A stretch of 64,000 bases of DNA from IMG/VR virus record IMGVR_UViG_3300025120_000036, positions 4,974 to 68,973 of that record. One strand, 5' to 3'. Each line of letters opens with the position of its first letter. Within the stretch, counting starts at the first letter, position 1. The DNA is from a virus. This document shows, one piece after another, positions 4,823-34,862 of this stretch. The position numbers and the translations under genes are program-made. The notes below the pieces were generated by a model. The model saw nothing but the letters and a program-made list of their open reading frames with translations, was not told the DNA's origin and ran no database searches.

Positions 4823-5318
4823 ACCCACACAGTTTATAAAAAATTGGTTACGTAAATTTGTAGAAGTGCCACACCCTGCATTTGCGGATATGCCACCATG
4901 TCCTTATGCTAGACAGGCTCGAATGCAAGACAAAATAAAGTTTATGGAAATCAACACAGCTTTTCCTGAAGTAAACATTTATTTAGAAATAAGCAAATTT
5001 GATTTTGACAACAATGATGTGTTGGTAATGATACTGCCTGCAGATGATTTAACGGTCAAACAAACTCAAAGCACAGCAATCACATTAAACAAGCAATTTC
5101 GTAAAAGCGATATTGTGGTACTAGAAGATCATCCTCAAATAAAAGAACAAGTACAGTCAGTTAAACTTAACAACGGGCAATACATTTTGTTTTTGGCTCA
5201 AAGACTTTCAAAATTAAACAAGGCCAGTAGTGCTTTGAAACGAACTGGATACTACAAAAATTGGACTAAACAGTATTTTGACCACGTGGTAACTTCGAGA
5301 GATCCTCAATCTTCTTAA
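4776..5318 (+). CDS. DUF1415-like hypothetical protein (start uncertain, 4746 or 4776)
   Basis: W...FVE.P......PCPYA and DHP motifs resemble DUF1415-type proteins. Confidence 0.5.
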   Translation: MKQSKSQNLKSKKKNKPTQFIKNWLRKFVEVPHPAFADMPPCPYARQARMQDKIKFMEINTAFPEVNIYLEISKFDFDNNDVLVMILPADDLTVKQTQSTAITLNKQFRKSDIVVLEDHPQIKEQVQSVKLNNGQYILFLAQRLSKLNKASSALKRTGYYKNWTKQYFDHVVTSRDPQSS

Positions 5319-6066
5319 TCCGGCTGTCACGTTGACACAACCTCACATATTTTTCTTTGTCTTTGCTCCACTCCGTGCCTGTCCACCATTGGAATCCTCT
5401 GTACTGACTTTTGTATGCACTGCTTTTTTCATAACCACTGCCCAGATACAAATCTGATACTCCACGTCTCTTGCACCAGCTGGCTTCCATGTCCACAGTG
5501 ACTTGACTGATGGGCACTGTGTTGGCATGAAGCACACTCTCTACTGCTACACACTGATCTGGATTTAATCTTTTTAGTTCTTTTCTGTTGTTGAAGTTCA
5601 GCAGTTCTTCTTGGAACCAATAGCGTTTAATTTTGGAAAAGCCAACCATGTTGGTGACGTTGCCCACGTAGTACAATAAAAAACTGTCTCGGTCTGATAT
5701 GTGTCCAAACGGATCATAGAGATCTCTGAATCCGGTACGTTTGATATAGCTGTTGTACACACGTCTCAGGCCAGTCATCTCAATGTTGTCTGTGTCTGGA
5801 ACAATTTCCATCATCTGTATAGTACGGCCACGCCATTGCGCCGTACGTTTGGACGGTCTGTACTGTGATAGATTGATACGTGTACTACGGCTTTGATAAA
5901 AACATTCCTGCAGTCTGCCTTCAAAATGCACAGGATTATCCAGTGCCAACCAGCCAGTGTCCAGCATTTCTGCTTCTTCGAAACTTTCGGGAATTGCAAA
6001 AGGTTTACACACAACAAGGTCCTGTCTTTCCTGTTTGCCAAAACTGTGATCAAAAAGTAATTGCAT
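5266..6066 (-). CDS. ATE/Bpt-like aminoacyl-tRNA--protein transferase (GNAT fold)
   Basis: N-terminal ML..GW...S.RI.L and C-terminal LYLG.GYE....YK..Y.GF.W motifs resemble the ATE_N/ATE_C arrangement. Confidence 0.55.
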   Translation of the reverse strand: MQLLFDHSFGKQERQDLVVCKPFAIPESFEEAEMLDTGWLALDNPVHFEGRLQECFYQSRSTRINLSQYRPSKRTAQWRGRTIQMMEIVPDTDNIEMTGLRRVYNSYIKRTGFRDLYDPFGHISDRDSFLLYYVGNVTNMVGFSKIKRYWFQEELLNFNNRKELKRLNPDQCVAVESVLHANTVPISQVTVDMEASWCKRRGVSDLYLGSGYEKSSAYKSQYRGFQWWTGTEWSKDKEKYVRLCQRDSRIKKIEDLSKLPRGQNTV

Positions 6067-6084
6067 TGCTTAATAGTTATTGAG

Positions 6085-6479
6085 TTGAAGAGATGTGCAT
6101 GAGCACATCTGAAACTTCGCTGTGCTCGTTTCCTTTGTTGCGTCTCCTGTGGTAGATGAGCAGTCACAATTCGGCTATTTCTAGCCGAACCGACTTGAGC
6201 TCTGTGGTGAGTTCACAGTCACTATACATCGCTACTTGCGTCGGGCGGTTGTGCTGTACCCGTTTGCTCATTCATTACAACGCGAGCCTACCAAATCCTT
6301 GTATAATAGTTTTTGGTAAACCTGAGGTTTGTCTTTTTCTAAGAGCCTCATCATTTTTGCATTTGCATCTACAGATTCACCTATCCTCTTATCGAGTGCA
6401 ATTCTGTGCTCACTACATTGATGCTATTTTTGCCTATTGAGAAATTTGTTTGCCTGGTGGTTGGATGCTGTTGCCCAAC
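6085..6479 (-). ncRNA. Unidentified ~400 nt structured non-coding RNA (or origin-associated primer RNA)
   Basis: No credible ORF; many stems, a GAAA tetraloop and G-U pairs that work on the minus strand; two candidate long-range pairings; upstream sigma70-type promoter. Confidence 0.6.
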
Positions 6480-6484
6480 ACTAG

Positions 6485-6513
6485 TATATAACATGGAATA
6501 CTTTTGGGGTCAA
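6485..6513 (-). promoter_or_regulatory. Sigma70-type promoter for the structured RNA
   Basis: TTGACC-17 nt-TATATA with a TG extension (overlapping TATACT); predicted start ~6479. Confidence 0.6.
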
Positions 6514-6536
6514 TCTTTTTGACTTTAAATACCACT

Positions 6537-6977
6537 ATGACATGGTTTTACCAAAACAATCCAATAGCTGAATTACCTGCGGACTGTGTGGGTTTTGTGT
6601 ACGAAATAACCTGCCTAGAGAACCAACGCAAATACATAGGCAAGAAATTAGCCAAATTCAAAACCACGCGATATAAAATGCACACGCAAAAAAACGGAAA
6701 AAAAATACGCAAAAGAATTCGCGGCGCTGTAGACAGCGGTTGGAAACAATACTACGGTAGCAGTGACGCATTGCAAAAGGACATTGATTTATATGGTGCT
6801 GACAAATTTAAAAGAGAAATATTGTTCTATTGCCACAGCAAAGCAGAACTATCTTACGTAGAAGCCAGAGAACAGTTTGCACGAAAAGTGTTAGAATCTG
6901 ATCACTACTACAACGGACACATAAGAGTGAGAGTCCATGGCAAAGGAATCCTAAAAGAAAAAGCCCCCAACCGTTAA
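6537..6977 (+). CDS. Stand-alone GIY-YIG endonuclease (endonuclease II/Seg-like)
   Basis: GFVYEIT...RKYIGKK, W..YYGSS, F.REIL, YYNG.I motifs; likely start ATG 6537 just after TTTAAATA. Confidence 0.85.
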   Translation: MTWFYQNNPIAELPADCVGFVYEITCLENQRKYIGKKLAKFKTTRYKMHTQKNGKKIRKRIRGAVDSGWKQYYGSSDALQKDIDLYGADKFKREILFYCHSKAELSYVEAREQFARKVLESDHYYNGHIRVRVHGKGILKEKAPNR

Positions 6978-6990
6978 GCTGAAGGCTTTT
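6952..6990 (-). terminator. Intrinsic terminator after the H1-like gene
   Basis: Minus strand AAAAGCCTTCAGCT-TAAC-GGTTGGGGGCTTTT followed by a T-rich tract; sits between convergent genes. Confidence 0.7.
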
Positions 6991-7012
6991 GTGAATTGCA
7001 ATTCAATAATTA

Positions 7013-7201
7013 TTACGCGGCTTTTTGTGCGTTTTTAGTTTCTTGAATTTCTTTTCTTCTTGATTTAATTAACTTAGATAATTCAGCAAGTGCTTTTCTG
7101 GCTCTTGTTGCAGATGCCTTTACGCCTTTTTCCACAAACTTAGAATTTTCTTCTGAGTATGTTTGAATTGCTGTCATTATTGATTCATGTGTTTGTGACA
7201 T
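7013..7201 (-). CDS. Small basic histone H1-like protein
   Basis: 62 aa, KGVKASATRARKAL.EL.K..K.RRKEI motif. Confidence 0.65.
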   Translation of the reverse strand: MSQTHESIMTAIQTYSEENSKFVEKGVKASATRARKALAELSKLIKSRRKEIQETKNAQKAA

Positions 7202-21887: not shown

Positions 21888-24800
21888 ATGGCAGACGTAC
21901 CAGTTAATTCAACATCCAACAGTGCAACTTACAAAGATAAAAACGGAACTGTAATAAGAAGATCAATAGCTCATCTTCCTGCATTTTACAGAACAGATGC
22001 TAACGAAAGATTTTTAAACAGCACAATAGATCAATTAATACAACCAGGACAACTTGAAAGATTAGATGGATTTATTGGTAGAGAATACGCATACACTAGA
22101 AACACAACAAAAGACAAATATATTACTGCCACTAGTACAGACAGAAAAAATTATCAACTAGAACCTACGGTAACATTTACAGATCAAGATACTTCAAGTG
22201 TAAATCCGGAAGATCAAGTAAAGTTCACAGGCACATATGATGATTACATCAACCAAATTAATTTTTATGGCGGCTTTACAGATAACCATGATAGACTAAA
22301 CAAAGAAAAAGTTTACGCATGGAATCCAGCAATAGACTACGACAAATTAATTAATTACAGAGAATACTATTGGGTACCAGATGGTCCTAATGCAATAGCT
22401 ATAAGTTCAGTTGGCACAGGGTCAACAACAGAAATTGATGTTGTAAACAATGCCGCTGGAGCATACCAATTTGGAATTAAAGGCAACACAAATAATCCAA
22501 CAATTGAATTATACAGAGGCAACACTTACAAATTTAAAGTAAATGCTCCAGGTCATCCTTTTTACATAATGACCGAACCATTTAAAACAGGAATTGCTTT
22601 AGATGGTTCAACTTCTGTAATTTGGAGCACAGGAGTAACAAACAACGGCACAGATTCAGGTACAGTTGAATTTGTTGTACCAGCAGACGCACCAAATAGT
22701 TTATTTTATCAATGCGGTAATCACACTGCCATGCATGGAGTCATAAATGTTAAGACTGTAACATCAACTACAAAAATTGATGTAGTGAATGATATAATTG
22801 GTTCAAGAACATACACAACAACTTCAGGAACTGTTTTAAGCAACGGAATGAAAGTAAAGTTTGGCAGTAATGTTTCAGATATTACAAACTATTCAGGTAA
22901 CGAATTTTATGTTGAAGGAGTTGGTGAGTCAATTACATTGTCAAATATATCAGGATTAATAACACCGGAATCTTACAGTACTGAAACAACAGAATTATAT
23001 GATACAGTAGCTTACGATCAGAGACCTTATGCTATTGCATTTTACAGACCAGAAACACGAGACTATATTACAATTAAAAGAGATTCACTAGATCAAAATG
23101 CATGGTCAAGATATAACAGATGGTTCCATAAATCTGTGCTTGAAACGACTGCAATAGCAAATGGTGGTGTAGCAAACTTATTAGAAGAAGACAGAGCAAA
23201 GCGTCCTATAATTGAATTTGATTCTGGACTTGCACTTTACAATCATGGTTTACAAGCAAAAACATCAGTTGCTTTGGTTGACACAGTAACCACTGACGCA
23301 TTTTCTCAAATTGTAAACACAGGAGGTTACATCGTTGATGGTGTGTCTTTAGCAGAAGGTATGAGAGTGCTTTTTACAGCAGACACAGACAACCTTGTAA
23401 AAAATAAAATTTTTAAGGTTAGTTTTCATACAGTAGACGATTCCACAATACTTGCAGGTAAAAAAACAATTATTGCTTTAACTGAAGAAGATGACGCAAC
23501 ACCTGTAGATGGTGAATGTGTATTTGTAGAGTTAGGCACAAACAATCAAGGAAAAACTTATTTTTACAACGGCACAACAAAAATTTGGGCAGTTGGACAA
23601 ACTAAAACAGGCGTCAATCAGCAACCGTTATTTGATATGTTTGATAATAATCATACTAGTTTTGGAAACACTACAACATATCCAAATACAAGTTTTAGTG
23701 GAGCAAAAGTTTTTGAGTATGAAACATCAGACACAGCAGTCACTGATACTGTATTAGGAATTAAAGTAAAATACAAAACTATAAACAATGTTGGAGATAT
23801 CGTATTTAAATCAGATATTTCTTCCGGAACCTTTACTTACAAAAGTGGAGACGAATTTTTAACTAAAAGTAATGGAGCAGGACATTTACATTATACAACA
23901 GGACTTACAACACATAATTCAAAAAGCGGCTGGATTGAAAGATCTGTAGAATCTAAACAAAGAGTTATAAACACAGTTGTTGTTACAGCAGATGAAAAAT
24001 TATTATTTCCAATAAATGTTTACAAAAATTCTGCTAATTTAAGTGATTTAGAAGTTTCAGTAGAAGTTAATCATATAAGAAAAAATTTAACTACTGATTA
24101 TACTTTAGCAAGTGGTACGGTTAACAAGTATGTTAAATTTGTAAAAGAATTATCAGTTGGAGATATAATCAAAATTCAAACTTATTCAGCAACTAAAAAA
24201 GTTAACGGAAAAGGCTTATATGAAGTACCTGAAAATTTAAGTACAAATCCTCTTAACACTCAATTGGGAGAATTTACTCTTGGTGAAATTTTAAATCACG
24301 TAAATGACATTATTGTCAAAAACAATGACGTGGTTGGCACAACACCAGGCTCAAGCAACCTAAGAGATTTGCCAGATGTCAGAACAAAAGGTGGAACTAT
24401 ATTACAGCACTCAGGAGCCCTACCAGCCGGAATATTCAACTTAATTGATCAGAGTGCAAATGCAATCACATCTTTAGATTACGTAAATTTAGAATATCAA
24501 AAATTTAAAGATAATTTTTTAGCACAATCTACAGGAAAAACTTTTGAAGGCGACGTTGCAGACTTTGTTGACACAATTATTGATACACTAGGACAAACTA
24601 AATCTTCTAGTTTTCCTTTTTACTATGAAGACATGGTTGGTTATGGACCAAATGTTTCTTTAAGAACTTACACTGTATTAGATTCATCTGAAGTAGAATA
24701 TGCAATAGATTCTCAACACACTATGTCAACACCTAGCAACAGAGCTGTGTATGTTTACTTGAATGACGTACAGTTGTTACTAGGCACAGACTATACTTTT

Positions 24801-27800
24801 AGTACAACAGATGACAGTATAACCATACTTGCCACTATTGCAGTAAATGATATTATTAAAATTAAAGACTATGCAAGTACTACTGGAAGTTTTGTTCCAC
24901 CTACGCCAACTAAACTTGGAATGTATCCAAAGTTTAAACCAGAATCAATCACTGATAACACTTATAGAACAAGTCAAACTGTTATTGTAGGACACGACGG
25001 GTCAAGAACAATCGCTTATGGAGATTACAGAGACGATCTACTGATAGAATTAGAAAAAAGAATTTACAATAACTGTAAAACTGCATACGATTCATCTTTG
25101 TTACCTTTCTCTGATGTAAAACCTTCAGCTTTTACAAAAACAGATTATACTAGACAAGAAGTTGATGCAGTTTTAGGACCAGATTTTTATAGTTGGGCAG
25201 GTAAAAACGGTGTTGATTGGCAAAACAATAAAACGTTCAATGCCAGTGATGGCTTTACTTGGAACTACGGATTTTCAAGAAGTCATATTACTAATGATTT
25301 CCTACCAGGCTACTGGAGAGGAATATTTTATCACTTGTATGACACAGATAGACCTCATACGCACCCATGGGAAATGCTTGGCTATTCTGAAAAGCCTAGT
25401 ACTTGGGAAACCGAATACGGACCAGCTCCTTACAGTGCAGGTAACTCTGTGTTGTGGGAAGATCTTGCCGCTGGGTATGATAGGCTTCAAAAGAAAAGTA
25501 TTACAAGATACATAAGAACTAATTTACTAAATTATCTACCTGTAGATGAAAACGGAACTTTAAGAAGTCCAGCATCTATAGGATTAGTGTCAAACGATTT
25601 AACAAGAAATTTAAATAGAAAATGGAATTTTGGCGATCAATCTCCTGGAGAATCAGCTTGGAGAAGATCATCTGCTTATCCTTTTACTGTTTGTAAATTA
25701 TTAGCGATAACAAGACCTGCAAAATTCTTTGGACTGTTTTTTGATAATTCAAGACTTATTGTTAACACCGGTGGAAACTTAATTGATAAAGACACAGAAA
25801 TAAGACAAAATTTAAACACTGCAAAATATCATTTAGAAATAGAAACTGATAGCAAAACAGGTGTTGTCACTAGATATATTACTGCAGGCTATCAGCCTTG
25901 GGTAGTAAATTACTTAATTGCAAATAACCTTGATCCAGCTACGTTTTACTATGACAAAATGAAAGGGTTAGGAGTGCAACTTGCATACAAACTTGGTGGA
26001 TTTACAGACAAACAAAACATAAAAGTATTAACAGATTCAACATCTCCGTCAAGCACTGGAGGATCACAGTTTATACCAGACGAAAACATAAAAGTTTTAT
26101 TTAGAAGTTCAAATCCTGTTGAAAGTTATGATTACTCGGGTGTCTTAATTGAATTAAACACAAACCTTACTCTTGATGGATCAACATTAGAAGGCGGTTA
26201 TAAAGTTATAGGTTACAATACTTTAAGACCTTTCTTTAAAGTTTTTGAACCAATTGTAAATGGAAATAATACAAAGTCCAAAGTAGGAACTGCTGAAGCT
26301 TTAATTTATAACAACTGGGGCATTACAACTAAAACAATAACTTATGGCACGGTGCTGAGAACTGTTCAAGACGTTGTAAACTTTTTAGTTGGATATGGCA
26401 AATATTTAGAATCCAGAGGATTTGTATTTGATAAATTTTCAAATGAAATAAAAGAAGTTAATAATTGGGAAACTTCAGCAAAAGAATTTTTATATTGGAC
26501 AACACAAGGATGGTCGGCTGGTTCGGCAATCACAGTGTCAGCAGGAGCTGACGGATTTAATATTGAAACCAACAATAGTATAATTACCAGATTAAGAAAT
26601 ATGCGTGGCGATTACACAGTAATGGACGCAGGTGGAAGGACTATTGGCACAAAAGATATATCAACTAAAAGGATTGGTACTACTTTTAGTATATCTGCAA
26701 AAAATTCAGAAGTTGGAATATTCAATGCGACAATGAATTCTGTACAAAAAGAACATTTAATTATTTTTGATAATAAAACAGTGTTCAACGATGTTATACT
26801 TGAAACTACTACAGGTTTTAGGCAAGAAAGATTAAAACTAGTTGGTTGGAAAACTGGCGGATGGAATGGAGACTACTATTCTCCTGGTTTTGTTTTTGAC
26901 GAAGCTAAAGTAAGTTTATGGTCCGCAAATACTAACTACGAAATTGGTGACACAGTTGAATATGATGCTAAATTTTTTGTAGCAAAAAAGAATCATAATT
27001 CTTTATCTGCATTTGACTTTGCACAATGGATCAAAAAAGATTCAAAACCTGCACCAGCATTAATTCCAAACTTTGACTATAAAATTTCACAGTTTAACGA
27101 TTTTTACAATTTAGAAACAAATAACTTTGATGAATCGCAACAAGCACTAGCACAACATTTAATTGGATACCAAAGCAGAAGTTATCTAGAAAACTTACTT
27201 GTTAACGATATTTCTCAGTATAAATTTTATCAAGGATTTATTAGAGACAAAGGAACAAGAACAGCAATAGACAGACTTTTGAAAGCACAATTTAACAATG
27301 AAAGTTTAACAATTGAAACGTACCCAGAATGGATGATACGTATTGGTGAGTTTGGAAATGTAGACGGCCTTAAATCTATTCAAATTAAAATGGATGACAC
27401 AACATTCTCAAAAAATATTCAATCAATTGAGCTACTTGACAACGCAAACTCAACTGTAAGTTATGATAGATCTGCTACTGCAACTGTTGATCAGATGTAT
27501 AGCAAACCATTAGATTATACAGCTTCAACAACTTTTGATCATTATGATTACACTCAAGCAGGAATTGACAGAAATACACCTGAAGTTTTCAAAACCGCTG
27601 GCTTTGTAAGACCAGAAGATGTACAACATACTGCTTTTACAAAAGCTGATTTAACAAACTTAGATGCAAATAACATAAAGTCAAATGATCTTGTGTGGGT
27701 AGCGAACACCAGCACATTAGATTCAAATACATCAACATACAATCAATGGGACGTTTTACGTATTACCTCAACTAATTTAAGGGTGAAGTCATTACAGTCA

Positions 27801-30800
27801 TTTAACACTGATACACAATTATTAATCAACACATCAGCTAGTCATACTTTTAAAAAATTGGATTATGTAACTATTTCTAATTCACAATTTACAGAATTAA
27901 ATGGTGCGTATCAAATAATTGATGTGCCAAATGCAACATCAATTTTAATTTCATATGCCAATGCTTCTAGATTAGGCACAGGCGTTAGTATATTAGCTGA
28001 CGGATCTACTTTTGGCACATACGGAAATCTTTACAAATTTGTTAGTGTAAGAGTAAGTTCAATGGATTATGCTAATCAATCTCTTTCTTATAAAGATTAT
28101 CGTGATGCAGATGCAACAAATAAAGCAAACGGTGATAGAATTTTTGCTGATAACACCGCAAGCCTATGGAAAATTTACGAGAAAGTTGAGCCATACACAA
28201 CCACGGTGTTAAATTCACCTAGTACAACAGACAATCAAGATTTTGGTTGGGCTATTACAGGCAGAAACGATGGAAGAACTTTAGTAGTTTCAGCTCCTGA
28301 TTTAGGACAAGGCACAATTAACTTTTACTTTAGATCAAGTTCTGCACCAGGCACAGCTTATACATTACAAACCAGTTTGACAATGACAGACGATGAGGAT
28401 ACAAGTTCTAGACTAGGTTACAGTTTATCATCTAGCATCGATGGCAACTTTATAGTTGCAGGTGCACCATTAGCCAACGCAGTAGCCAACGATGGTAGCA
28501 CAAGATTTACAGATTCAGGACTTGTCAAAGTTTATATTTGGAGTCCATCAACATTTGCATTTACTGAATTGTCTACAATTAGAGCTCCGCATGACGGATC
28601 TAGTGTGAGACACAGAGCAAATTTTGGTTGGTCAACAGCAATAGCAGAGCTTACAGAGTCGGCAGACAGAACAACAACTCCTAAGTATTTGTTTGTTGGA
28701 GCACCAGGACATGAAAATGACACAGGTATTGTTCATATGTACACTTGGGGAATAGGTTCAGATGGTTCCACATATGACACATGGACGCACAATGTATCAA
28801 TACAAAGTGCCGCACCTTCAAACAATGATAGATTTGGACACAAAGTTGCAACCAATGATAACGGTGATATCCTAGCAGTATCTTCTATATCTACAAGCAC
28901 AGCAGGTAAAGTTGAAATTTATATTAGAGGTGGACACACTAATGATGACAGTACAATCAACAGTTGGACACTCGCACAAACTATTGTTGGACTTGCCGCA
29001 GATGGATCAACTCTTAATCAAGCATTTGGTGATGCAATAGCAATGGACAAAAGTGGTGACACTTTGATTGTGTCAGCACCTGGCTATGACAAAACAAATC
29101 AAGCAGATGCAGGTGCAGTTTATTACTACAAATGGAACGCAGACGGATCTACAAACACATATTCATTACAACAAACATTAGAAGCACCAGATGATCAATA
29201 CAACATGAAATTTGGTACTACCCTTGCTATAAATCATGCAGGTGACAGAATAGTAATTGGTGCAGAAAAATTAGGAAACAGTAGAGAGATGAGAATTGAT
29301 ACTGGAGCCACAACATTTGATTTACAAGACACAACATTTATGGATTTAAATATTGGATCAGGCGGGGCCTACACAGCAACCAAATATGATTCAAAATTTG
29401 TAGTAGATGATTTATTAGTTACAACACACGTGAGTTCAAATGATGATTTTGGCAGAGGTGTTTATATCAATGACAGAGGTGTTTACATAGGTGCACCGGA
29501 AGACGATTCATCGTCAGCTGTAGAAAATGACGGAACAGTGACAATATTTGACTTAGATACAGTAGGAAGTTATGCATGGAAAAATTTAGTTACTGAAAGT
29601 AATTTAATTGATAATAGAAAAATTAAATCAGCATTTACTTTTAACAAAGCAAGTAATAGAATTATTGATTATTTAGATTACTACGATCCAATCAAAGGAA
29701 GAATATTAGGTATTGCAGACAGAGAAATTAATTATAAAACAGAATGGGATCCGGCAGTCTACAATGTTGGTTTGGAAACTGACACAGTAAATTCTACAAC
29801 AGCATGGGGAGAAGAACACATTGGAGAAGTATGGTGGGATCTTTCAAAAGCAAGATGGAAAACTTATGAACAAGGTGATCAAGAGTACAGAGCTAAAAAT
29901 TGGGGCCAGTTGTTTCCAGGAGCAACTATAGATGTGTATGAATGGGTTGAAAGTAAACTTACTCCAAGTGAATGGGAAGGACAAGCAGACACCACGGCAG
30001 GGTTATCAAGTAACGTTTCAGGAACACCTTTTGTCGCTGAAAACACAACATTTACACTTAAACAAAAATATAGTTCAGCTTTAGATGGCTTTATAAATTA
30101 TTATTACTTTTGGGTAAAAAATTCAGTATTTTTACCTGACCCAGGACAATCAGTTGTAAGAAGAAAAAATACAACCGCATATGTTTCTAATGTAATTGCA
30201 AATCCAATAGCATCAGGAATTAAATTTTACACAGTTTCAGACAAAAACAAAATTATTACTTTTAATGTTAAAGATAGTTTATTCAATGACAATGTTGTTT
30301 TAAACATAGATTATAGCAGTAACTTAAACGAAGGTGAATCACACGCAGTTTGGAAAATATTCAGTGAAGGTGATGCTGACGATAGACCAAATGCAACTAT
30401 AGAAAACAAATGGTGGGACAGTTTAATTGGAGACGATCAATTTGGAAATCATGTTCCAGATTTAGACTTGCCTCTGAATAGAAAATATGGTACAGGACTA
30501 AGACCAAGACAAAGTTGGTATGTTGATAGGTATGATGCTCTTAAGCAAATTATTGATTATGCTAATACAGTGATGAAACAATATCAATTGGCAAACACTA
30601 TTGACAAAACAAACTTAGAGTCAGAAGAAGCACAACCTACTGCGGCATCAGGCGAATGGGACGGATCTGTTGACACTTACGCAGATCTTACATACCTAGA
30701 TACAAGAGAAATTAGTGGCTTGTCCAAATATTTGGTCAAAGCAGACGAACAAAATTCAAATGGTTACTGGGCAATATATCAATGGAGTGGTACAGAATGG

Positions 30801-33800
30801 AACAGAACAAAATTACAAACGTATAAAACATCAACTTATTACGATTTAGCAGACTGGTACGGTACCGATCCTGCTATTCATGGAATGCTACACAGTGAAA
30901 ATACAGTCATAGATGCACAGGTAACTTTTGAATATCAACTTGATACTTTAAATTTAGAAACTGGACAACACGTAAAAGTAACTAAAGCAGATACTGGTGG
31001 TTGGAAGTTGTTTATGAAAACGTCAACAGGATATACAAACGTTGGTACTGAAAATGGTACAATACAGTTAAGCACTAAACTTTATGATTATTCTATTGAT
31101 AATACAGGTTACGCTGGTGATGATACCTTTGATACTAACTTCTTTGACCAAGAACCTACTATTGAAACAAGAAAAGTTTTACAAGCATTAAGAGATGATA
31201 TCTTTATTGGGGAATTAAAAGTTGAATACAACAATTTATTCTTTATTGGATTAAGAAAAGTATTAGAAGAGCAGTTGTACGTTGACTGGTTATTTAAAAC
31301 AAGTTTCCTAAATATTAAAAATAATTTCCGTGAACTAGATCAAAGAAAAACTTACACATCTGGTGCAGACACATATGTTGAAGAATATATTAAAGAAGTC
31401 AAACCATTCCATACTAAATTAAGAGAGTATAAAGTTGGTTACAATAAAACAGAAACACAAGACGGACTGTTTTCAGACTTTGACAATCCAGCATTTTACG
31501 ATGAAGATATTAAAGCAATAAGAACTTTAAACAAAGACAGTTCAGCAGATGCAACACGTATTACTGAATATCCACACAAGATATGGAATACAAGTTACAA
31601 AAAATCTGTTAAAACTTTAACACTAGTAAATGCAGGAACAGGATACACTACTGCACCAACTGTGACATTTTTAGGTGGTACATCTGATTCCACAGGACCA
31701 TTTCAAATTTTAGGTAGAAGTAGTTCAGGTGGTAGTTCAGGAACATACGGATATTTTTATCCACTGTTTTTAAACGAACAAAAGTCCAACATCTATGACA
31801 AACAAAATGGTGGAGCAGGTGCTTCTCACAGACACACGTTCGAGGAGTATCCTGGGAACGTATATTACATGCCAAATAGTTTCATTGCTAATCATGGTCT
31901 GTCAACTAGAAATTTTGCATTTAAGATGTATTACGAATCAACAGCGAACCATGCCACTGCTCAAGCAGTTGTACAAGGTGGAAAAGTTACTAAAATTAAT
32001 TTATTGACTGCTGGTGCAGGTTACGATACAACACCAACAATAATTTTATCAGGAGGCGCATCAGATGGGTCTAATCCTACCGACACAGCCAAAGTTTACG
32101 CAAATCTTGGTAATGATCTTGTGAGAGATTTTGATGTTACGTTAAGGTTTGACAGAATTACAAAAACTTCAACAGTGTATGATTGGAAAGCAAGTACATC
32201 ATACGTGTATGAGAATTTAATAAGGCACAATAACGAATTGTATAGAGCCACAAGTGATTTCACATCTACAACAACGTTCAATGATAGTATTGGAAATTTA
32301 TTTAAACTAACCGGTAATGAAAGTTACATCACTGCCGCTGACAGAACTTTAGGTATGTATACACCAGAAGCTGGAATGCCAGGAAATGATTTAACACAAT
32401 TAATGGAAGGTGTCGATTATGGAGGAGTAATGGTTACAGGTTTATTATTCAAAGAAGATCAAGGTTGGGACAAATCATCTTGGTATGATTTCCCATGGGA
32501 CACATTTGGAACTACAAAAGTTAAAACTTTTTATGGTGATGGCTCAACTGTGCTTTATACATTTGATACTGCACCAGCTGTTGGCGAAGTATACACAGTG
32601 TACTATGCAGGCGTGAGACAGACTGCTCAGGTGTTTTTAGGTGATGGTTCTACAAGAACATTAACACTTTCAACTGCTCCAGGCAATGGAGTCAAAGTTG
32701 AATTAATTCCATTTGATGACGATAAAGTTTTAACTCCTACAGATGACAGAGTTTTAGATTCTTTAGTGACAGGTGGATTGTTTTCAACAGCAGTAGGTAT
32801 TGCTCCAGGTGATATACTTACAGACGGTGATGCTTTTATTACACCTGAAAATAGTTTTGCTCCTGAAGAACAAGTACCAGGTCAAATATTTGACACATTA
32901 GATATCACAGTTTATACCACACCTGAATCTGGAGTGCCATTTATTGTAGATAAAACATATAGAGGTAACGGATCAACCACTACATTTGATATTGGACAAC
33001 AACCTGGCACACAGGCCGCGGTAATGGTAAGTTTAGATGGTGTACATCAAAACAATCTTGCTTCTGATAGCACATTAAATTATACTGTAGACACAGCGGC
33101 AAAAACAGTTTCATTTACGTCAGCACCTGTAACAAATTCAATTATAAACATAAAAAGTTTTGCAGTATCAGGAAACAATTACGTACTGTTAAACAGTTTT
33201 ACTGGCGACGGATCAACAACAGCGTTTGAAACTTCTGCTAGAGACACTTATCAACTAGACAGTGCATCACCGCAAATTTATGTAACAGAAGACGGAGTGC
33301 CTACAACAGATTACACAACAACTGAAGCAAACAGAAGAGTAACAATTACTTTTAATTCAGCTCCTGCAAATGGTAAAGCAATACAAATTGCTGGATTCAA
33401 TCAAGATCCTAGCACTAGAGCGTTTGCTGAAATTAGAAGCGAAAATATAAATTATGATTTATCAACAACAACTTATACATTAGACTTCCCTCCTGGAGCA
33501 GTTGGTCCTTTTGCGGCTCTAACATTAGTTGAAGTGAATGGCATATTGTTAAGAGGCCCAGACAATACATATTATTCAGGAGATGGTACAACTTATTCTT
33601 ATGGTGTTGTATCTGGCCTTACAGATGGTTCTACTGTTGATCCATCAAAAACTATTACTGATGCAAGTCAAATAGAAGTTTACAAAAATGGAATTAAATT
33701 AGCTCTTAACACAGACTATACAGTAGACATATCAGCACAAACAGTAGAGTTTACATCACCCCCTACCGATGCAGATGTAGTTGCTGTGTCAACATTAGTT

Positions 33801-34862
33801 GAAAATCATTACTCAATGGTGGATAATGACCTAACTTTTAATTTGGCACAATTGAGTACAGATAGTATAACCATTACTACTGGAGATGATATTAGAGTTA
33901 CAACTTTTAACAATGCTCTTGGCATGAAACATAGAAGAGAAATTCTTGAAGGAAGACAAAGCAATCAACTAGCTTTAAGTAATGATGTAATAAATGCAGA
34001 CTATGTTTTTGTTACATTAAACAATAATAGAGCTTTAGTACAAAATCAGGATTACACATTATCAGGAAAAATTATTACAGTTGGATCACATATAACTTTA
34101 ACAGCTTCAGACAGAATTGATATAATGTATTTTGCAGTTGAATCTGCAACCAACGCCACAGGATTTAGAATTTTTAAAGATATGTTAAACAGAACTTTTT
34201 ACAAACGTATTAGTGCAAATGCAACAACAACTTTAGCCAAGTCTTTAGAGCCAGGTGATAAGAAAATTACAGTTGCTAACGCCACAGTGCTTACACAACC
34301 TGACATTACAATTGATGATGGATCAACAGTGCAGTTTAGCACACCGGGTGTAATTTTTATAGATAAAGAAAGAATAGAATATTTTGCCAAATCGGGTAAC
34401 GAATTATCTCAATTAAGAAGAGGTACCCTTGGCACAGGAATTAAGGTGCACGTCTCAGGCGTATCAGTAGTTGACGCAGGTGGACAACAAACCGTACCTT
34501 ATGCTGATACTGTTTCAACCAAAACCCACGTAGGTGATGGAAGTACAGTACAGTTTACTACTACATACGCTCCGTCTCGTGCAGAAGATTTAGACATATT
34601 CATTGGTGGCCAACGATTGTCCTTCCAACACGAGACGGACGACAGTACAATTAACCCAAACTATTCGGTAGATGGAAGTACCGCAAATGTAACATTAACT
34701 CTGGCACCTGCTTCTGGAACGCAGGTAAAAATAGTACAAAAACGTGGTAATACATGGTACACAGCTGGAACAAACACAGCCGCTGACGGAAATGGACTAC
34801 AAAGTTCAACAACTGCACAGGCTAAATTCATAGCAGGAGACCCAACAAATGCGCCAGAATAA
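21888..34862 (+). CDS. Giant (4324 aa) baseplate/virion structural protein in the gp7 position
   Basis: Uninterrupted ORF after gp6; cupredoxin-like segment, FG-GAP repeats, YIKEVKPFHTK, GDGST..F repeats, C-terminal L.QLRRGTLGT. Confidence 0.8.
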   Translation: MADVPVNSTSNSATYKDKNGTVIRRSIAHLPAFYRTDANERFLNSTIDQLIQPGQLERLDGFIGREYAYTRNTTKDKYITATSTDRKNYQLEPTVTFTDQDTSSVNPEDQVKFTGTYDDYINQINFYGGFTDNHDRLNKEKVYAWNPAIDYDKLINYREYYWVPDGPNAIAISSVGTGSTTEIDVVNNAAGAYQFGIKGNTNNPTIELYRGNTYKFKVNAPGHPFYIMTEPFKTGIALDGSTSVIWSTGVTNNGTDSGTVEFVVPADAPNSLFYQCGNHTAMHGVINVKTVTSTTKIDVVNDIIGSRTYTTTSGTVLSNGMKVKFGSNVSDITNYSGNEFYVEGVGESITLSNISGLITPESYSTETTELYDTVAYDQRPYAIAFYRPETRDYITIKRDSLDQNAWSRYNRWFHKSVLETTAIANGGVANLLEEDRAKRPIIEFDSGLALYNHGLQAKTSVALVDTVTTDAFSQIVNTGGYIVDGVSLAEGMRVLFTADTDNLVKNKIFKVSFHTVDDSTILAGKKTIIALTEEDDATPVDGECVFVELGTNNQGKTYFYNGTTKIWAVGQTKTGVNQQPLFDMFDNNHTSFGNTTTYPNTSFSGAKVFEYETSDTAVTDTVLGIKVKYKTINNVGDIVFKSDISSGTFTYKSGDEFLTKSNGAGHLHYTTGLTTHNSKSGWIERSVESKQRVINTVVVTADEKLLFPINVYKNSANLSDLEVSVEVNHIRKNLTTDYTLASGTVNKYVKFVKELSVGDIIKIQTYSATKKVNGKGLYEVPENLSTNPLNTQLGEFTLGEILNHVNDIIVKNNDVVGTTPGSSNLRDLPDVRTKGGTILQHSGALPAGIFNLIDQSANAITSLDYVNLEYQKFKDNFLAQSTGKTFEGDVADFVDTIIDTLGQTKSSSFPFYYEDMVGYGPNVSLRTYTVLDSSEVEYAIDSQHTMSTPSNRAVYVYLNDVQLLLGTDYTFSTTDDSITILATIAVNDIIKIKDYASTTGSFVPPTPTKLGMYPKFKPESITDNTYRTSQTVIVGHDGSRTIAYGDYRDDLLIELEKRIYNNCKTAYDSSLLPFSDVKPSAFTKTDYTRQEVDAVLGPDFYSWAGKNGVDWQNNKTFNASDGFTWNYGFSRSHITNDFLPGYWRGIFYHLYDTDRPHTHPWEMLGYSEKPSTWETEYGPAPYSAGNSVLWEDLAAGYDRLQKKSITRYIRTNLLNYLPVDENGTLRSPASIGLVSNDLTRNLNRKWNFGDQSPGESAWRRSSAYPFTVCKLLAITRPAKFFGLFFDNSRLIVNTGGNLIDKDTEIRQNLNTAKYHLEIETDSKTGVVTRYITAGYQPWVVNYLIANNLDPATFYYDKMKGLGVQLAYKLGGFTDKQNIKVLTDSTSPSSTGGSQFIPDENIKVLFRSSNPVESYDYSGVLIELNTNLTLDGSTLEGGYKVIGYNTLRPFFKVFEPIVNGNNTKSKVGTAEALIYNNWGITTKTITYGTVLRTVQDVVNFLVGYGKYLESRGFVFDKFSNEIKEVNNWETSAKEFLYWTTQGWSAGSAITVSAGADGFNIETNNSIITRLRNMRGDYTVMDAGGRTIGTKDISTKRIGTTFSISAKNSEVGIFNATMNSVQKEHLIIFDNKTVFNDVILETTTGFRQERLKLVGWKTGGWNGDYYSPGFVFDEAKVSLWSANTNYEIGDTVEYDAKFFVAKKNHNSLSAFDFAQWIKKDSKPAPALIPNFDYKISQFNDFYNLETNNFDESQQALAQHLIGYQSRSYLENLLVNDISQYKFYQGFIRDKGTRTAIDRLLKAQFNNESLTIETYPEWMIRIGEFGNVDGLKSIQIKMDDTTFSKNIQSIELLDNANSTVSYDRSATATVDQMYSKPLDYTASTTFDHYDYTQAGIDRNTPEVFKTAGFVRPEDVQHTAFTKADLTNLDANNIKSNDLVWVANTSTLDSNTSTYNQWDVLRITSTNLRVKSLQSFNTDTQLLINTSASHTFKKLDYVTISNSQFTELNGAYQIIDVPNATSILISYANASRLGTGVSILADGSTFGTYGNLYKFVSVRVSSMDYANQSLSYKDYRDADATNKANGDRIFADNTASLWKIYEKVEPYTTTVLNSPSTTDNQDFGWAITGRNDGRTLVVSAPDLGQGTINFYFRSSSAPGTAYTLQTSLTMTDDEDTSSRLGYSLSSSIDGNFIVAGAPLANAVANDGSTRFTDSGLVKVYIWSPSTFAFTELSTIRAPHDGSSVRHRANFGWSTAIAELTESADRTTTPKYLFVGAPGHENDTGIVHMYTWGIGSDGSTYDTWTHNVSIQSAAPSNNDRFGHKVATNDNGDILAVSSISTSTAGKVEIYIRGGHTNDDSTINSWTLAQTIVGLAADGSTLNQAFGDAIAMDKSGDTLIVSAPGYDKTNQADAGAVYYYKWNADGSTNTYSLQQTLEAPDDQYNMKFGTTLAINHAGDRIVIGAEKLGNSREMRIDTGATTFDLQDTTFMDLNIGSGGAYTATKYDSKFVVDDLLVTTHVSSNDDFGRGVYINDRGVYIGAPEDDSSSAVENDGTVTIFDLDTVGSYAWKNLVTESNLIDNRKIKSAFTFNKASNRIIDYLDYYDPIKGRILGIADREINYKTEWDPAVYNVGLETDTVNSTTAWGEEHIGEVWWDLSKARWKTYEQGDQEYRAKNWGQLFPGATIDVYEWVESKLTPSEWEGQADTTAGLSSNVSGTPFVAENTTFTLKQKYSSALDGFINYYYFWVKNSVFLPDPGQSVVRRKNTTAYVSNVIANPIASGIKFYTVSDKNKIITFNVKDSLFNDNVVLNIDYSSNLNEGESHAVWKIFSEGDADDRPNATIENKWWDSLIGDDQFGNHVPDLDLPLNRKYGTGLRPRQSWYVDRYDALKQIIDYANTVMKQYQLANTIDKTNLESEEAQPTAASGEWDGSVDTYADLTYLDTREISGLSKYLVKADEQNSNGYWAIYQWSGTEWNRTKLQTYKTSTYYDLADWYGTDPAIHGMLHSENTVIDAQVTFEYQLDTLNLETGQHVKVTKADTGGWKLFMKTSTGYTNVGTENGTIQLSTKLYDYSIDNTGYAGDDTFDTNFFDQEPTIETRKVLQALRDDIFIGELKVEYNNLFFIGLRKVLEEQLYVDWLFKTSFLNIKNNFRELDQRKTYTSGADTYVEEYIKEVKPFHTKLREYKVGYNKTETQDGLFSDFDNPAFYDEDIKAIRTLNKDSSADATRITEYPHKIWNTSYKKSVKTLTLVNAGTGYTTAPTVTFLGGTSDSTGPFQILGRSSSGGSSGTYGYFYPLFLNEQKSNIYDKQNGGAGASHRHTFEEYPGNVYYMPNSFIANHGLSTRNFAFKMYYESTANHATAQAVVQGGKVTKINLLTAGAGYDTTPTIILSGGASDGSNPTDTAKVYANLGNDLVRDFDVTLRFDRITKTSTVYDWKASTSYVYENLIRHNNELYRATSDFTSTTTFNDSIGNLFKLTGNESYITAADRTLGMYTPEAGMPGNDLTQLMEGVDYGGVMVTGLLFKEDQGWDKSSWYDFPWDTFGTTKVKTFYGDGSTVLYTFDTAPAVGEVYTVYYAGVRQTAQVFLGDGSTRTLTLSTAPGNGVKVELIPFDDDKVLTPTDDRVLDSLVTGGLFSTAVGIAPGDILTDGDAFITPENSFAPEEQVPGQIFDTLDITVYTTPESGVPFIVDKTYRGNGSTTTFDIGQQPGTQAAVMVSLDGVHQNNLASDSTLNYTVDTAAKTVSFTSAPVTNSIINIKSFAVSGNNYVLLNSFTGDGSTTAFETSARDTYQLDSASPQIYVTEDGVPTTDYTTTEANRRVTITFNSAPANGKAIQIAGFNQDPSTRAFAEIRSENINYDLSTTTYTLDFPPGAVGPFAALTLVEVNGILLRGPDNTYYSGDGTTYSYGVVSGLTDGSTVDPSKTITDASQIEVYKNGIKLALNTDYTVDISAQTVEFTSPPTDADVVAVSTLVENHYSMVDNDLTFNLAQLSTDSITITTGDDIRVTTFNNALGMKHRREILEGRQSNQLALSNDVINADYVFVTLNNNRALVQNQDYTLSGKIITVGSHITLTASDRIDIMYFAVESATNATGFRIFKDMLNRTFYKRISANATTTLAKSLEPGDKKITVANATVLTQPDITIDDGSTVQFSTPGVIFIDKERIEYFAKSGNELSQLRRGTLGTGIKVHVSGVSVVDAGGQQTVPYADTVSTKTHVGDGSTVQFTTTYAPSRAEDLDIFIGGQRLSFQHETDDSTINPNYSVDGSTANVTLTLAPASGTQVKIVQKRGNTWYTAGTNTAADGNGLQSSTTAQAKFIAGDPTNAPE

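Follow-up and report, generated by a model that had tools for sequence, protein, structure and literature searches.

We examined a stretch of 64,000 nucleotides (nt) from a virus (IMG/VR record IMGVR_UViG_3300025120_000036, positions 4,974 to 68,973; hereafter the window) and found that its minus strand encodes, at 6091-6479, a real structured RNA of about 390 nt that is pseudoknotted and non-coding. The source record comprises 68,973 bases, and since CheckV estimates its completeness at 17%, the phage genome may be very large. The window has an overall G+C content of 35% and holds T4-like recombination, baseplate and tail genes. The RNA locus, read on the minus strand, is situated between the recombination and baseplate modules, with the recombination genes gp46 and gp47 adjoining, and lies within a non-coding stretch of 437 nt (6067-6503) that separates a minus-strand open reading frame (ORF) of 266 amino acids (aa) (5266-6066) from a plus-strand GIY-YIG nuclease ORF (ATG at 6537). 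A first-pass annotation of the sequence had singled out this gap as unusual in a densely coding window. With ORFs of at least 80 aa laid out, it is indeed the largest stretch devoid of a credible ORF, the other long ORF-poor stretches being the window edge and two regions with small ORFs that are conserved in relatives or match Pfam. The same annotation had proposed a large structured phage RNA distinct from tmRNA, RNase P RNA, transfer RNA (tRNA) and group I introns, and Rfam, ARAGORN and covariation all agree with that proposal.

The evidence that carries this finding comes from relatives. We aligned 60 distinct sequences of the window's own subtype (group A; alignment A4) and built a structure of 83 pairs by hand, guided by mutual information. 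Standard pairs occupy 94.0% of the 4878 cells, compared to 33.7-39.8% after sliding the 3′ partners by one to three columns, and the covariation score is 0.357 as against 0.05-0.08 for slid partners. Compensatory changes were found at 44 of the 83 pairs (509 cells), and none of 500 shuffles equalled any of the observed measures. Such a comparison of relatives had been proposed in the first-pass annotation, and on the strength of this covariation its list of stems is largely right. The frequent G-U pairs, which would be A-C on the opposite strand, assign the RNA to the minus strand. In hairpin P4, for instance, one pair is G-U in 46, A-U in 11 and G-C in 3 sequences and another is U-G in 41, U-A in 17 and C-G in 2, while two pairs of the pseudoknot are U-G in 50 and 49 sequences. 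Single-sequence folding gave unremarkable z-scores (−1.9 for the minus strand and −2.7 for the plus strand, hence slightly better on the wrong strand) and is therefore not used as support. RNAalifold applied to the 60 sequences returned an implausible central fold through invariant sequence and was replaced by the structure guided by mutual information.

Coding explanations for the conservation fared poorly. A 94-aa plus-strand ORF (6156-6440) proved to be a composition artefact that failed the indel test: 126 of 134 core indel events, scored versus the window, are not multiples of three, and the antisense frame stays open for at least 100 of 113 codons in 4 of 60 relatives only. A 35-aa minus-strand ORF beginning at the AUG at 6271 is lost in relatives, in which the codon reads AUA or a stop follows at the third codon. 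The covariation also bears on whether the conserved element could be DNA, such as an origin, the template of a primer RNA, or protein-binding iterons around an inverted repeat, the RNA folds then being a by-product. A 10-bp inverted repeat does lie between two direct repeats that are spaced by about 55 bp, and gp46 and gp47 adjoin, but nearly all helices show strand-specific G-U covariation, the pseudoknot is added to these, and the GC skew has no inflection at the locus. Given the covariation, we regard a DNA element as unlikely in the extreme. The skew follows gene strand, without inflection at 6.3 kb, which also tells against the replication primer or origin suggested in the first-pass annotation; the ColE1-like motif on which that suggestion drew is the loop of one hairpin and is different in most relatives.

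The RNA belongs to none of the established families searched. Rfam covariance models, an analysis that the first-pass annotation had advised, gave no match at gathering score over the whole window, and at E values up to 10 the region 5950-6650 returned only mir-4000, sR5 and SNORD65 at chance level (E 1.3-4.5). ARAGORN found no tRNA or tmRNA gene in the window, in line with the absence of Rfam tRNA or tmRNA matches there. RNase P RNA, GOLLD, ROOL, HEARO, OLE and other large Rfam families were set aside for want of a covariance-model match in the window, and a group I intron was rejected because no Rfam intron model matches and because the element is flanked by two complete, divergent genes and has a promoter ahead of it. 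In the literature searched, to which the supplements of Weinberg et al. (2010) did not belong, we found no paper on this RNA apart from the Table 1 entry for a motif discussed below, Polynucleobacter-1.

Read from its 5′ end, which is placed from the promoter, the RNA starts in part of group A with an optional hairpin, GUUGG/CCAAC (6460-6479). This first-pass stem does covary, with GUUGG/CCAAC, GAAGG/CCUUC and GAUGG/CCAUC variants, but it is present only in an insertion-bearing subset of relatives; since most relatives lack the insertion, 56% of its cells are paired over all 60 sequences. There follows a 5′ domain (6365-6424) that differs between subtypes and is composed of P1, P2 and a small apical hairpin. 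P1 (GCAUC/GAUGC; 6424-6420 with 6369-6365) is 97.7% paired and P2, inside it (ACAGA/UCUGU; 6407-6403 with 6375-6371), is 97.6% paired, each having three compensatory pairs. Hairpin P3 (6323-6350; UGAGG...CCUCA with an inner CUU/AAG stem) is kept in all seven subtypes and has three compensatory pairs, one pair being A-U in 30 and G-C in 25 sequences. P4 (6285-6322), an 11-bp hairpin which the first-pass annotation had noted to require G-U pairs of the minus strand, shows compensatory changes at nine of its 11 pairs and 97.3% pairing. As that annotation had also predicted, its loop forms a pseudoknot: UAUUAUACA (6300-6308) pairs with UGUAUAGUG (6220-6228) over 9 bp, six of them compensatory, with 98.7% of cells paired. 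The position of this pseudoknot is constant, and its sequence different, in subtypes A-F.

The central domain contains P6 (6242-6262), a CGGGU/GCCCG hairpin with a near-invariant 11-nt loop ACAGCACAACC and a closing pair that is C-G in 43 and U-A in 16 sequences; GGGUACAGCNNAACCGCCC, in the P6 region, is the signature of the whole superfamily described below. Next to it is the mini-hairpin P7 (6231-6241; A6241-U6234, C6240-G6235 and a tetraloop), which is 100% paired, as are the two pairs that close the P6/P7 domain, G6232-C6266 (C-G in 50 and U-A in 10 sequences, read from 6266) and C6231-G6267. Beyond the pseudoknot lies arm 1 (6202-6219), consisting of the single-stranded ACUGUGAACUC and a box, ACCACAG (box 1, 6208-6202), without internal complement. 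P9 (6168-6191), a 10-bp hairpin that is 99.3% paired with three compensatory pairs, carries a GNRA loop that is GAAA in the window and GCAA, GUAA or GAGA in relatives. It is followed by arm 2 (6147-6167), made up of GUGACUGCUCAUCU and a second ACCACAG (box 2, 6153-6147) identical to box 1. The 3′ portion comprises P11 (6111-6132; GAAAC/GUUUC with a conserved loop), with compensatory changes at all five pairs and 99.0% pairing, and P12 (6091-6110), a terminal 8-bp hairpin 24 nt upstream of where the 266-aa ORF starts, with three compensatory pairs and 89.7% pairing; by our own reading, its unpaired cells are window-like rows lying one column out of alignment register. P3, P4, P6, P9, P11 and P12 had all been on the first-pass list. 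Two other elements of it did not survive: a CUGUG/CACAG stem (6218-6202) is unpaired at one pair in 38 of 60 sequences, local arm stems of this kind (CUGUG/CACAG, UUGUG/CACAG) being unsupported, and a second pseudoknot, AUGAGCA with UGCUCAU, scored no better than shuffled columns, with changes that mostly break pairing. An invariant GCGU could pair with an ACGC in a further helix, which never varies on both sides.

Relatives were reached in two ways. With the 266-aa protein as query in viral contigs we found 12 loci, and in 11 of them the gap DNA directly upstream of the gene matches as well (76-87% identity). The identity of the RNA stays high where that of the protein is only 47-49%; in one locus (L008) it is 87% over 357 nt as compared with 47% for the protein. 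From the alignment of relatives we then took a near-invariant 19-nt signature, which as a pattern gave at least 120 matches on viral contigs. Counts of neighbouring genes given below cover the 120 pattern loci listed, 110 of them with an upstream and 88 with a downstream ORF in view. Bacterial and archaeal genomes (596 Gb) gave 38 matches to the signature; 34 of these are chance matches in G+C-rich DNA, and the other four, which carry the whole RNA, sit on short contigs of unrelated metagenome-assembled genomes and are probably mis-binned phage contigs. Blastn with RNAs of groups A, B, C and D against GenBank phages gave no match, although diverged copies could escape such a search; no cultured carrier is therefore known.

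Among the matches listed, the 530-nt surroundings of the signature comprise 90 distinct sequences. These form seven groups (A 60, B 12, C 10, D 4, E 2, F 1, G 1) that have the order of elements in common. An nhmmer search with a group A profile misses many of them. A core covariance model (R1; 150 positions, 28 pairs), built from group A alone, finds 30 of 30 group B-G loci over positions 1-150 at 30.8-51.6 bits (E 7e-11 to 2e-5), whereas chance bacterial signature loci give only local matches of 19-30 nt at no more than 18.6 bits. The window itself scores 174.6 bits, as a member of the training set. These full-length matches in six other subtypes unite them and the window RNA in one superfamily, so far confined to uncultured T4-like (Kyanoviridae-like) phages of the sea and fresh water. 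Searches with R1 through the complete records of Melnitz-3 and P-HM1 and through the contig of locus L013 brought up no copy of the RNA.

One subtype connects this superfamily to a motif already in Rfam. In all 12 group B loci, Polynucleobacter-1 (RF01718) matches directly 5′ of the common core and on the same strand, at 38-101 bits (gathering score 37 bits), and ends about 105-110 nt before the signature. No RF01718 match was obtained in 12 scanned loci of other groups or, even at an E value of 10, in the window. Polynucleobacter-1 and the window RNA thus share a genomic place, a strand and a position relative to the homologous core, and both are orphans; they differ in that the window has no RF01718 match and a 5′ domain (P1/P2, 6424-6365) that is built differently. 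Its place directly 5′ of the shared core implies that the 141-nt motif is an optional 5′ domain of a larger RNA, of which the RF01718 model leaves out the pseudoknot, the invariant loop and the twin arms. Seen from the Rfam side, RF01718 accounts for no more than the 5′ third of the conserved RNA (L036 5954-6330; likewise L016, L030 and nine other group B loci). The superfamily is accordingly large, phage-only and catalogued only in part. The first-pass annotation had called the window RNA a new class, and this stands insofar as no Rfam family matches it; what needs amending is that sister subtypes carry an orphan motif already named.

The gene on the 3′ side of the window RNA (5266-6066, minus strand) encodes a candidate aminoacyl-tRNA-dependent transferase of 266 aa with a predicted ATE1/Bpt/Fem/MprF-type fold. 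Searches of Pfam and PHROG with this protein gave no match, and none of the 120 listed among its 433 relatives has a precomputed Pfam domain or an informative name. Membership of ATE1/Bpt by Pfam was rejected, since the window protein does not reach the ATE_N/ATE_C cut-offs; one of 12 relatives has an ATE_C match (E 0.021). Structurally, an AlphaFold2 (AF2) model (pLDDT 75, pTM 0.79) found human ATE1 (8tzv_A) as its best Foldseek match (E 2.7e-4, TM 0.50), and VIA-align returned ATE1 with Z 12.6 (211 residues aligned, rmsd 4.7), an MprF domain with Z 12.0, L-PGS with Z 10.7, Kluyveromyces lactis Ate1 with Z 10.2 and FemX with Z 9.6. The model therefore points to an aminoacyl-tRNA transferase fold of the tandem GNAT type, a shared fold alone being no proof of activity. 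Tblastn of the protein against GenBank phages gave no homologue, and our literature search found no paper on phage ATE1/Bpt-like proteins. The gene has a G+C content of about 43-45% in a genome of 35%; together with the RNA it forms an island of 41-50% over 5200-6400, surrounded by 30-35%, consistent with a cassette moving between phages. Elsewhere in the window, a single ORF of 4324 aa (21888-34862, plus strand) is preceded by one of 1173 aa.

Upstream, a predicted sigma-70-like promoter (6485-6513, minus strand; TTGACC at 6513-6508, a 17-nt spacer and TATATA at 6490-6485) points into the RNA. This promoter, already recognised in the first-pass annotation, is not among the sites listed by a simple promoter scan; its pattern, TTGAC-N16-19-TAWAHH, recurs at the corresponding position in 44 of the 60 group A sequences and in none of 30 from other subtypes. 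At the other end, extra sequence is inserted after box 2 and ahead of the GAAAC hairpin in 39 of 60 group A sequences (L006, L008, L010-L012 and others); it comprises a hairpin (ACGCA...UGCGU), a T-run and another copy of UGCGU. This insertion may act as a terminator or attenuator, separating the RNA from its two 3′ hairpins. The window has no such hairpin after box 2, so that transcription probably reads into the transferase-like gene. As to expression, four RNA-library runs from three studies have contigs that match 5907-6541 with identities of 90-100%. These contigs are short, shallow in coverage and without strand information, they leave the remainder of 5200-7100 uncovered, and their runs had been selected for containing this very stretch.

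With no terminator between the RNA and the 266-aa gene, the RNA is formally a 420-nt leader in the window. It might thus act in cis, in the manner of a riboswitch or attenuator, sensing a ligand, tRNA or protein so as to control the transferase-like gene here and the gene for an unrelated 172-aa protein family (p172) in another subtype. The next 3′ ORF is co-directional in 51 of 88 listed loci, belonging to the 266-aa family in 33 and to p172 in 11, and the terminator-like hairpin of the 39 sequences contains an ACGC that could alternatively pair with the invariant GCGU. Moreover, the transferase-like gene is found beside the RNA in three arrangements, downstream and co-directional, upstream and divergent (L017, L020 and L101, 24% identity), or downstream and convergent (L029), which may point to a functional link; in one 141-kb phage record, however, a copy of the gene with 32% identity occurs without the RNA. 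Polynucleobacter-1, too, is listed as a probable RNA from Burkholderiales and from fresh water or estuary, with a probable cis-regulatory role (Weinberg et al. 2010, PMC2864571, Table 1). On the other hand, the 3′ ORF is convergent in 37 of the 88 loci, the downstream genes are mutually unrelated and form separate clusters, the GCGU/ACGC helix never covaries, and a leader offers no role for the twin boxes. In the 12 distinct Polynucleobacter-1 loci, furthermore, no co-directional ORF follows within about 1.3 kb. We consider a leader possible but fairly unlikely. As a separate observation, the lack of a co-directional gene after RF01718 in group B loci fits ill with its published cis-regulatory label.

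The gene divergent from the RNA (6537-6977, plus strand) encodes a SegE-like GIY-YIG nuclease that comprises the catalytic domain only; PF19835 matches residues 14-140 of its 157-aa ORF form (E 2.2e-31, 109 bits compared to a cut-off of 25). A GIY-YIG gene is directly 5′ of the RNA in 80 of 110 listed loci, divergent in 53 and co-directional in 27. Five of the 120 listed loci (L022, L029, L040, L109, L117) have a PD-(D/E)XK nuclease gene instead, as does L007 (941-1492, minus strand; PF24608, E 3.6e-20). Orthologues of the GIY-YIG protein occur in 390 GenBank phage records, the best being Methylophilales phage Melnitz (Kyanoviridae) at 51% identity, and Melnitz-3 and P-HM1 lack a gap of the size of the RNA next to the gene. 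Small SegE-like orthologues of this kind are labelled "NAD synthetase" in PHROG 447 and in many records of cyanophages (e.g. NC_015280.1 157848-158333; L173 2420-2905), which looks like a propagated misannotation. Just past the GIY-YIG gene, a 62-aa ORF (7013-7201, minus strand) matches the histone H1-like protein Hc1 (PF07432, E 7.5e-13).

Free-standing homing endonuclease genes of the Seg and Mob types adjoin conserved genes in T4-like phages. The window locus resembles this arrangement in that a SegE-like, swappable gene stands beside very conserved sequence at a module boundary (on such genes in T4-like phages, see PMC10448857). Because two unrelated nuclease families occupy one site, in either orientation, next to unusually conserved sequence, the nuclease gene is best read as a free-standing homing endonuclease gene beside a highly conserved target. 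Gene conversion tracts of homing may in part account for the excess in DNA identity of the RNA over the neighbouring protein. The likeness to homing genes explains the neighbour, not the RNA, and the GIY-YIG gene is unusually constant here for a gene of this kind.

Alternatively, the RNA might be a specificity subunit whose boxes guide a GIY-YIG protein lacking a DNA-binding domain to its target, akin to the partner RNA envisaged in the first-pass annotation. The adjacency behind that idea is borne out, a nuclease gene being directly 5′ in 85 of 110 listed loci (80 GIY-YIG, 5 PD-(D/E)XK); the protein is indeed a catalytic domain only, and the boxes vary between RNAs, as guides do. Against partnership itself stand the 390 GenBank phage records with GIY-YIG orthologues, in which blastn with four RNA subtypes found no match, and two whole GIY-YIG-bearing genomes (Melnitz-3 and P-HM1) in which R1 finds no RNA. 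Two unrelated nuclease folds share the place, gene orientation is not fixed, and boxes of 7-10 nt are short for the task. A specificity subunit is in our opinion very unlikely.

A further feature is the pair of boxes. Each arm follows a helix (the pseudoknot or P9), reads (GUG)ACUG...CU(C/U) and ends in a box of 7-10 nt. Within one RNA the two boxes are identical, and between RNAs they differ: the window has ACCACAG twice, and other RNAs have, for example, GCCACAG, AGCACAU, AGUACA, ACAUGAUG, GGUGAAG, UGUCAAG, AGUCAAG or AGGAUAAU. In A4, box columns 361 and 429 are identical to each other in 98% of sequences and columns 362 and 430 in 93%, yet they vary between sequences. In 78 of 90 RNAs the longest word common to both arms reaches at least 7 nt, a length attained in 31 of 322 pairs taken between groups and in 50 of 450 shuffles. 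A Watson-Crick or G-U partner for the box within the RNA is missing in 58 of 60 RNAs, and A4 has no column that covaries with the boxes in Watson-Crick fashion. Complementarity to tRNA anticodon loops was considered and dropped by eye, since many box types would have C where the rules for tRNAs call for a purine. We know of no other RNA class with twin identical variable boxes.

Our preferred reading, to which we would give somewhat less than an even chance, is an independently transcribed RNA that acts in trans by pairing through both boxes. It would be made early, as its own unit, from the sigma-70-like promoter, and, once folded, its core would expose the two identical boxes so that they can base-pair in trans. 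Their target would be one complementary sequence, present twice on a nucleic acid of phage or host, and the RNA could so serve as a bivalent adaptor, decoy or guide, possibly inside a protein complex. An independent gene is suggested by the convergent 3′ ORF (37 of 88 loci), the hairpin with T-run (39 of 60 sequences) and the recurring promoter pattern (44 of 60). Several points weigh against this reading. The function is wholly inferred, the window has no terminator before the 266-aa gene, and the RNA-library matches, few, unstranded and selected by query, define neither a strand-specific transcript nor its ends. In 30 loci examined out to 4 kb, the reverse complement of the box does not recur at any consistent position, and in the window the complement shows no meaningful pattern; ACCACAG itself occurs 14 times there, with 7.6 expected and again no pattern. 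Boxes of this length are also short for a guide, and their identity could reflect two sites for one fast-evolving protein.

A more specific version would have the boxes recruit or aim a protein encoded next door, be it the GIY-YIG or PD-(D/E)XK nuclease or the ATE1/Bpt-fold transferase, at a target present twice. We deem such a bivalent guide very unlikely; if true, it would be an RNA-directed phage activity of a kind distinct from CRISPR and from systems based on omega RNA or bridge RNA. Omega RNAs (of IscB and TnpB) and the IS110 bridge RNA combine a constant scaffold with variable pairing segments. They share with the window RNA a pseudoknotted scaffold beside a nuclease- or recombinase-type gene and short segments that vary by locus. 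Bridge RNA likewise presents two segments, which differ from each other, whereas those of the window are identical. In contrast to these systems, no IscB, TnpB or IS110 protein is found here, and the neighbouring nucleases also exist without the RNA.

The size of the RNA, its pseudoknot and GNRA loop, unpaired nucleotides that are nearly invariant, and a constant core with a variable periphery would also suit a ribozyme or a self-assembling particle made of RNA only, with the conserved junctions and loop as active site or assembly interface. In these respects it resembles GOLLD and ROOL (also OLE and raiA), which are several hundred nt long and phage-borne and have many helices, a pseudoknot and conserved unpaired nucleotides. 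The window RNA is smaller than GOLLD and ROOL, occupies a fixed syntenic site, has two identical variable boxes and is without an Rfam match. GOLLD, ROOL and OLE are reported to form homo-oligomers (PMC12286853). Against a ribozyme or particle, no Rfam ribozyme family matches, the few RNA-library contigs contain no processing site or joint, and there is no palindromic or complementary pair of loops for self-assembly. We therefore hold it to be distinctly unlikely. Among the three guesses of the first-pass annotation, a ribozyme or scaffold being the third, the nuclease partner and the primer are the less likely.

In conclusion, the RNA described here adds one more large, complex-folded class to the ornate RNAs of bacteria and phages that have no known function, and an orphan Rfam motif uncharacterised since 2010 is recognised as only the optional 5′ domain of a far larger RNA. 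The setting of the class is defined: uncultured T4-like phages, one syntenic site, nuclease genes alongside and often a previously unrecognised family with a predicted transferase fold. The twin identical boxes provide a testable handle on function. Should the RNA turn out to be a guide, decoy or ribozyme, it would be relevant to host takeover or gene exchange by abundant marine phages.

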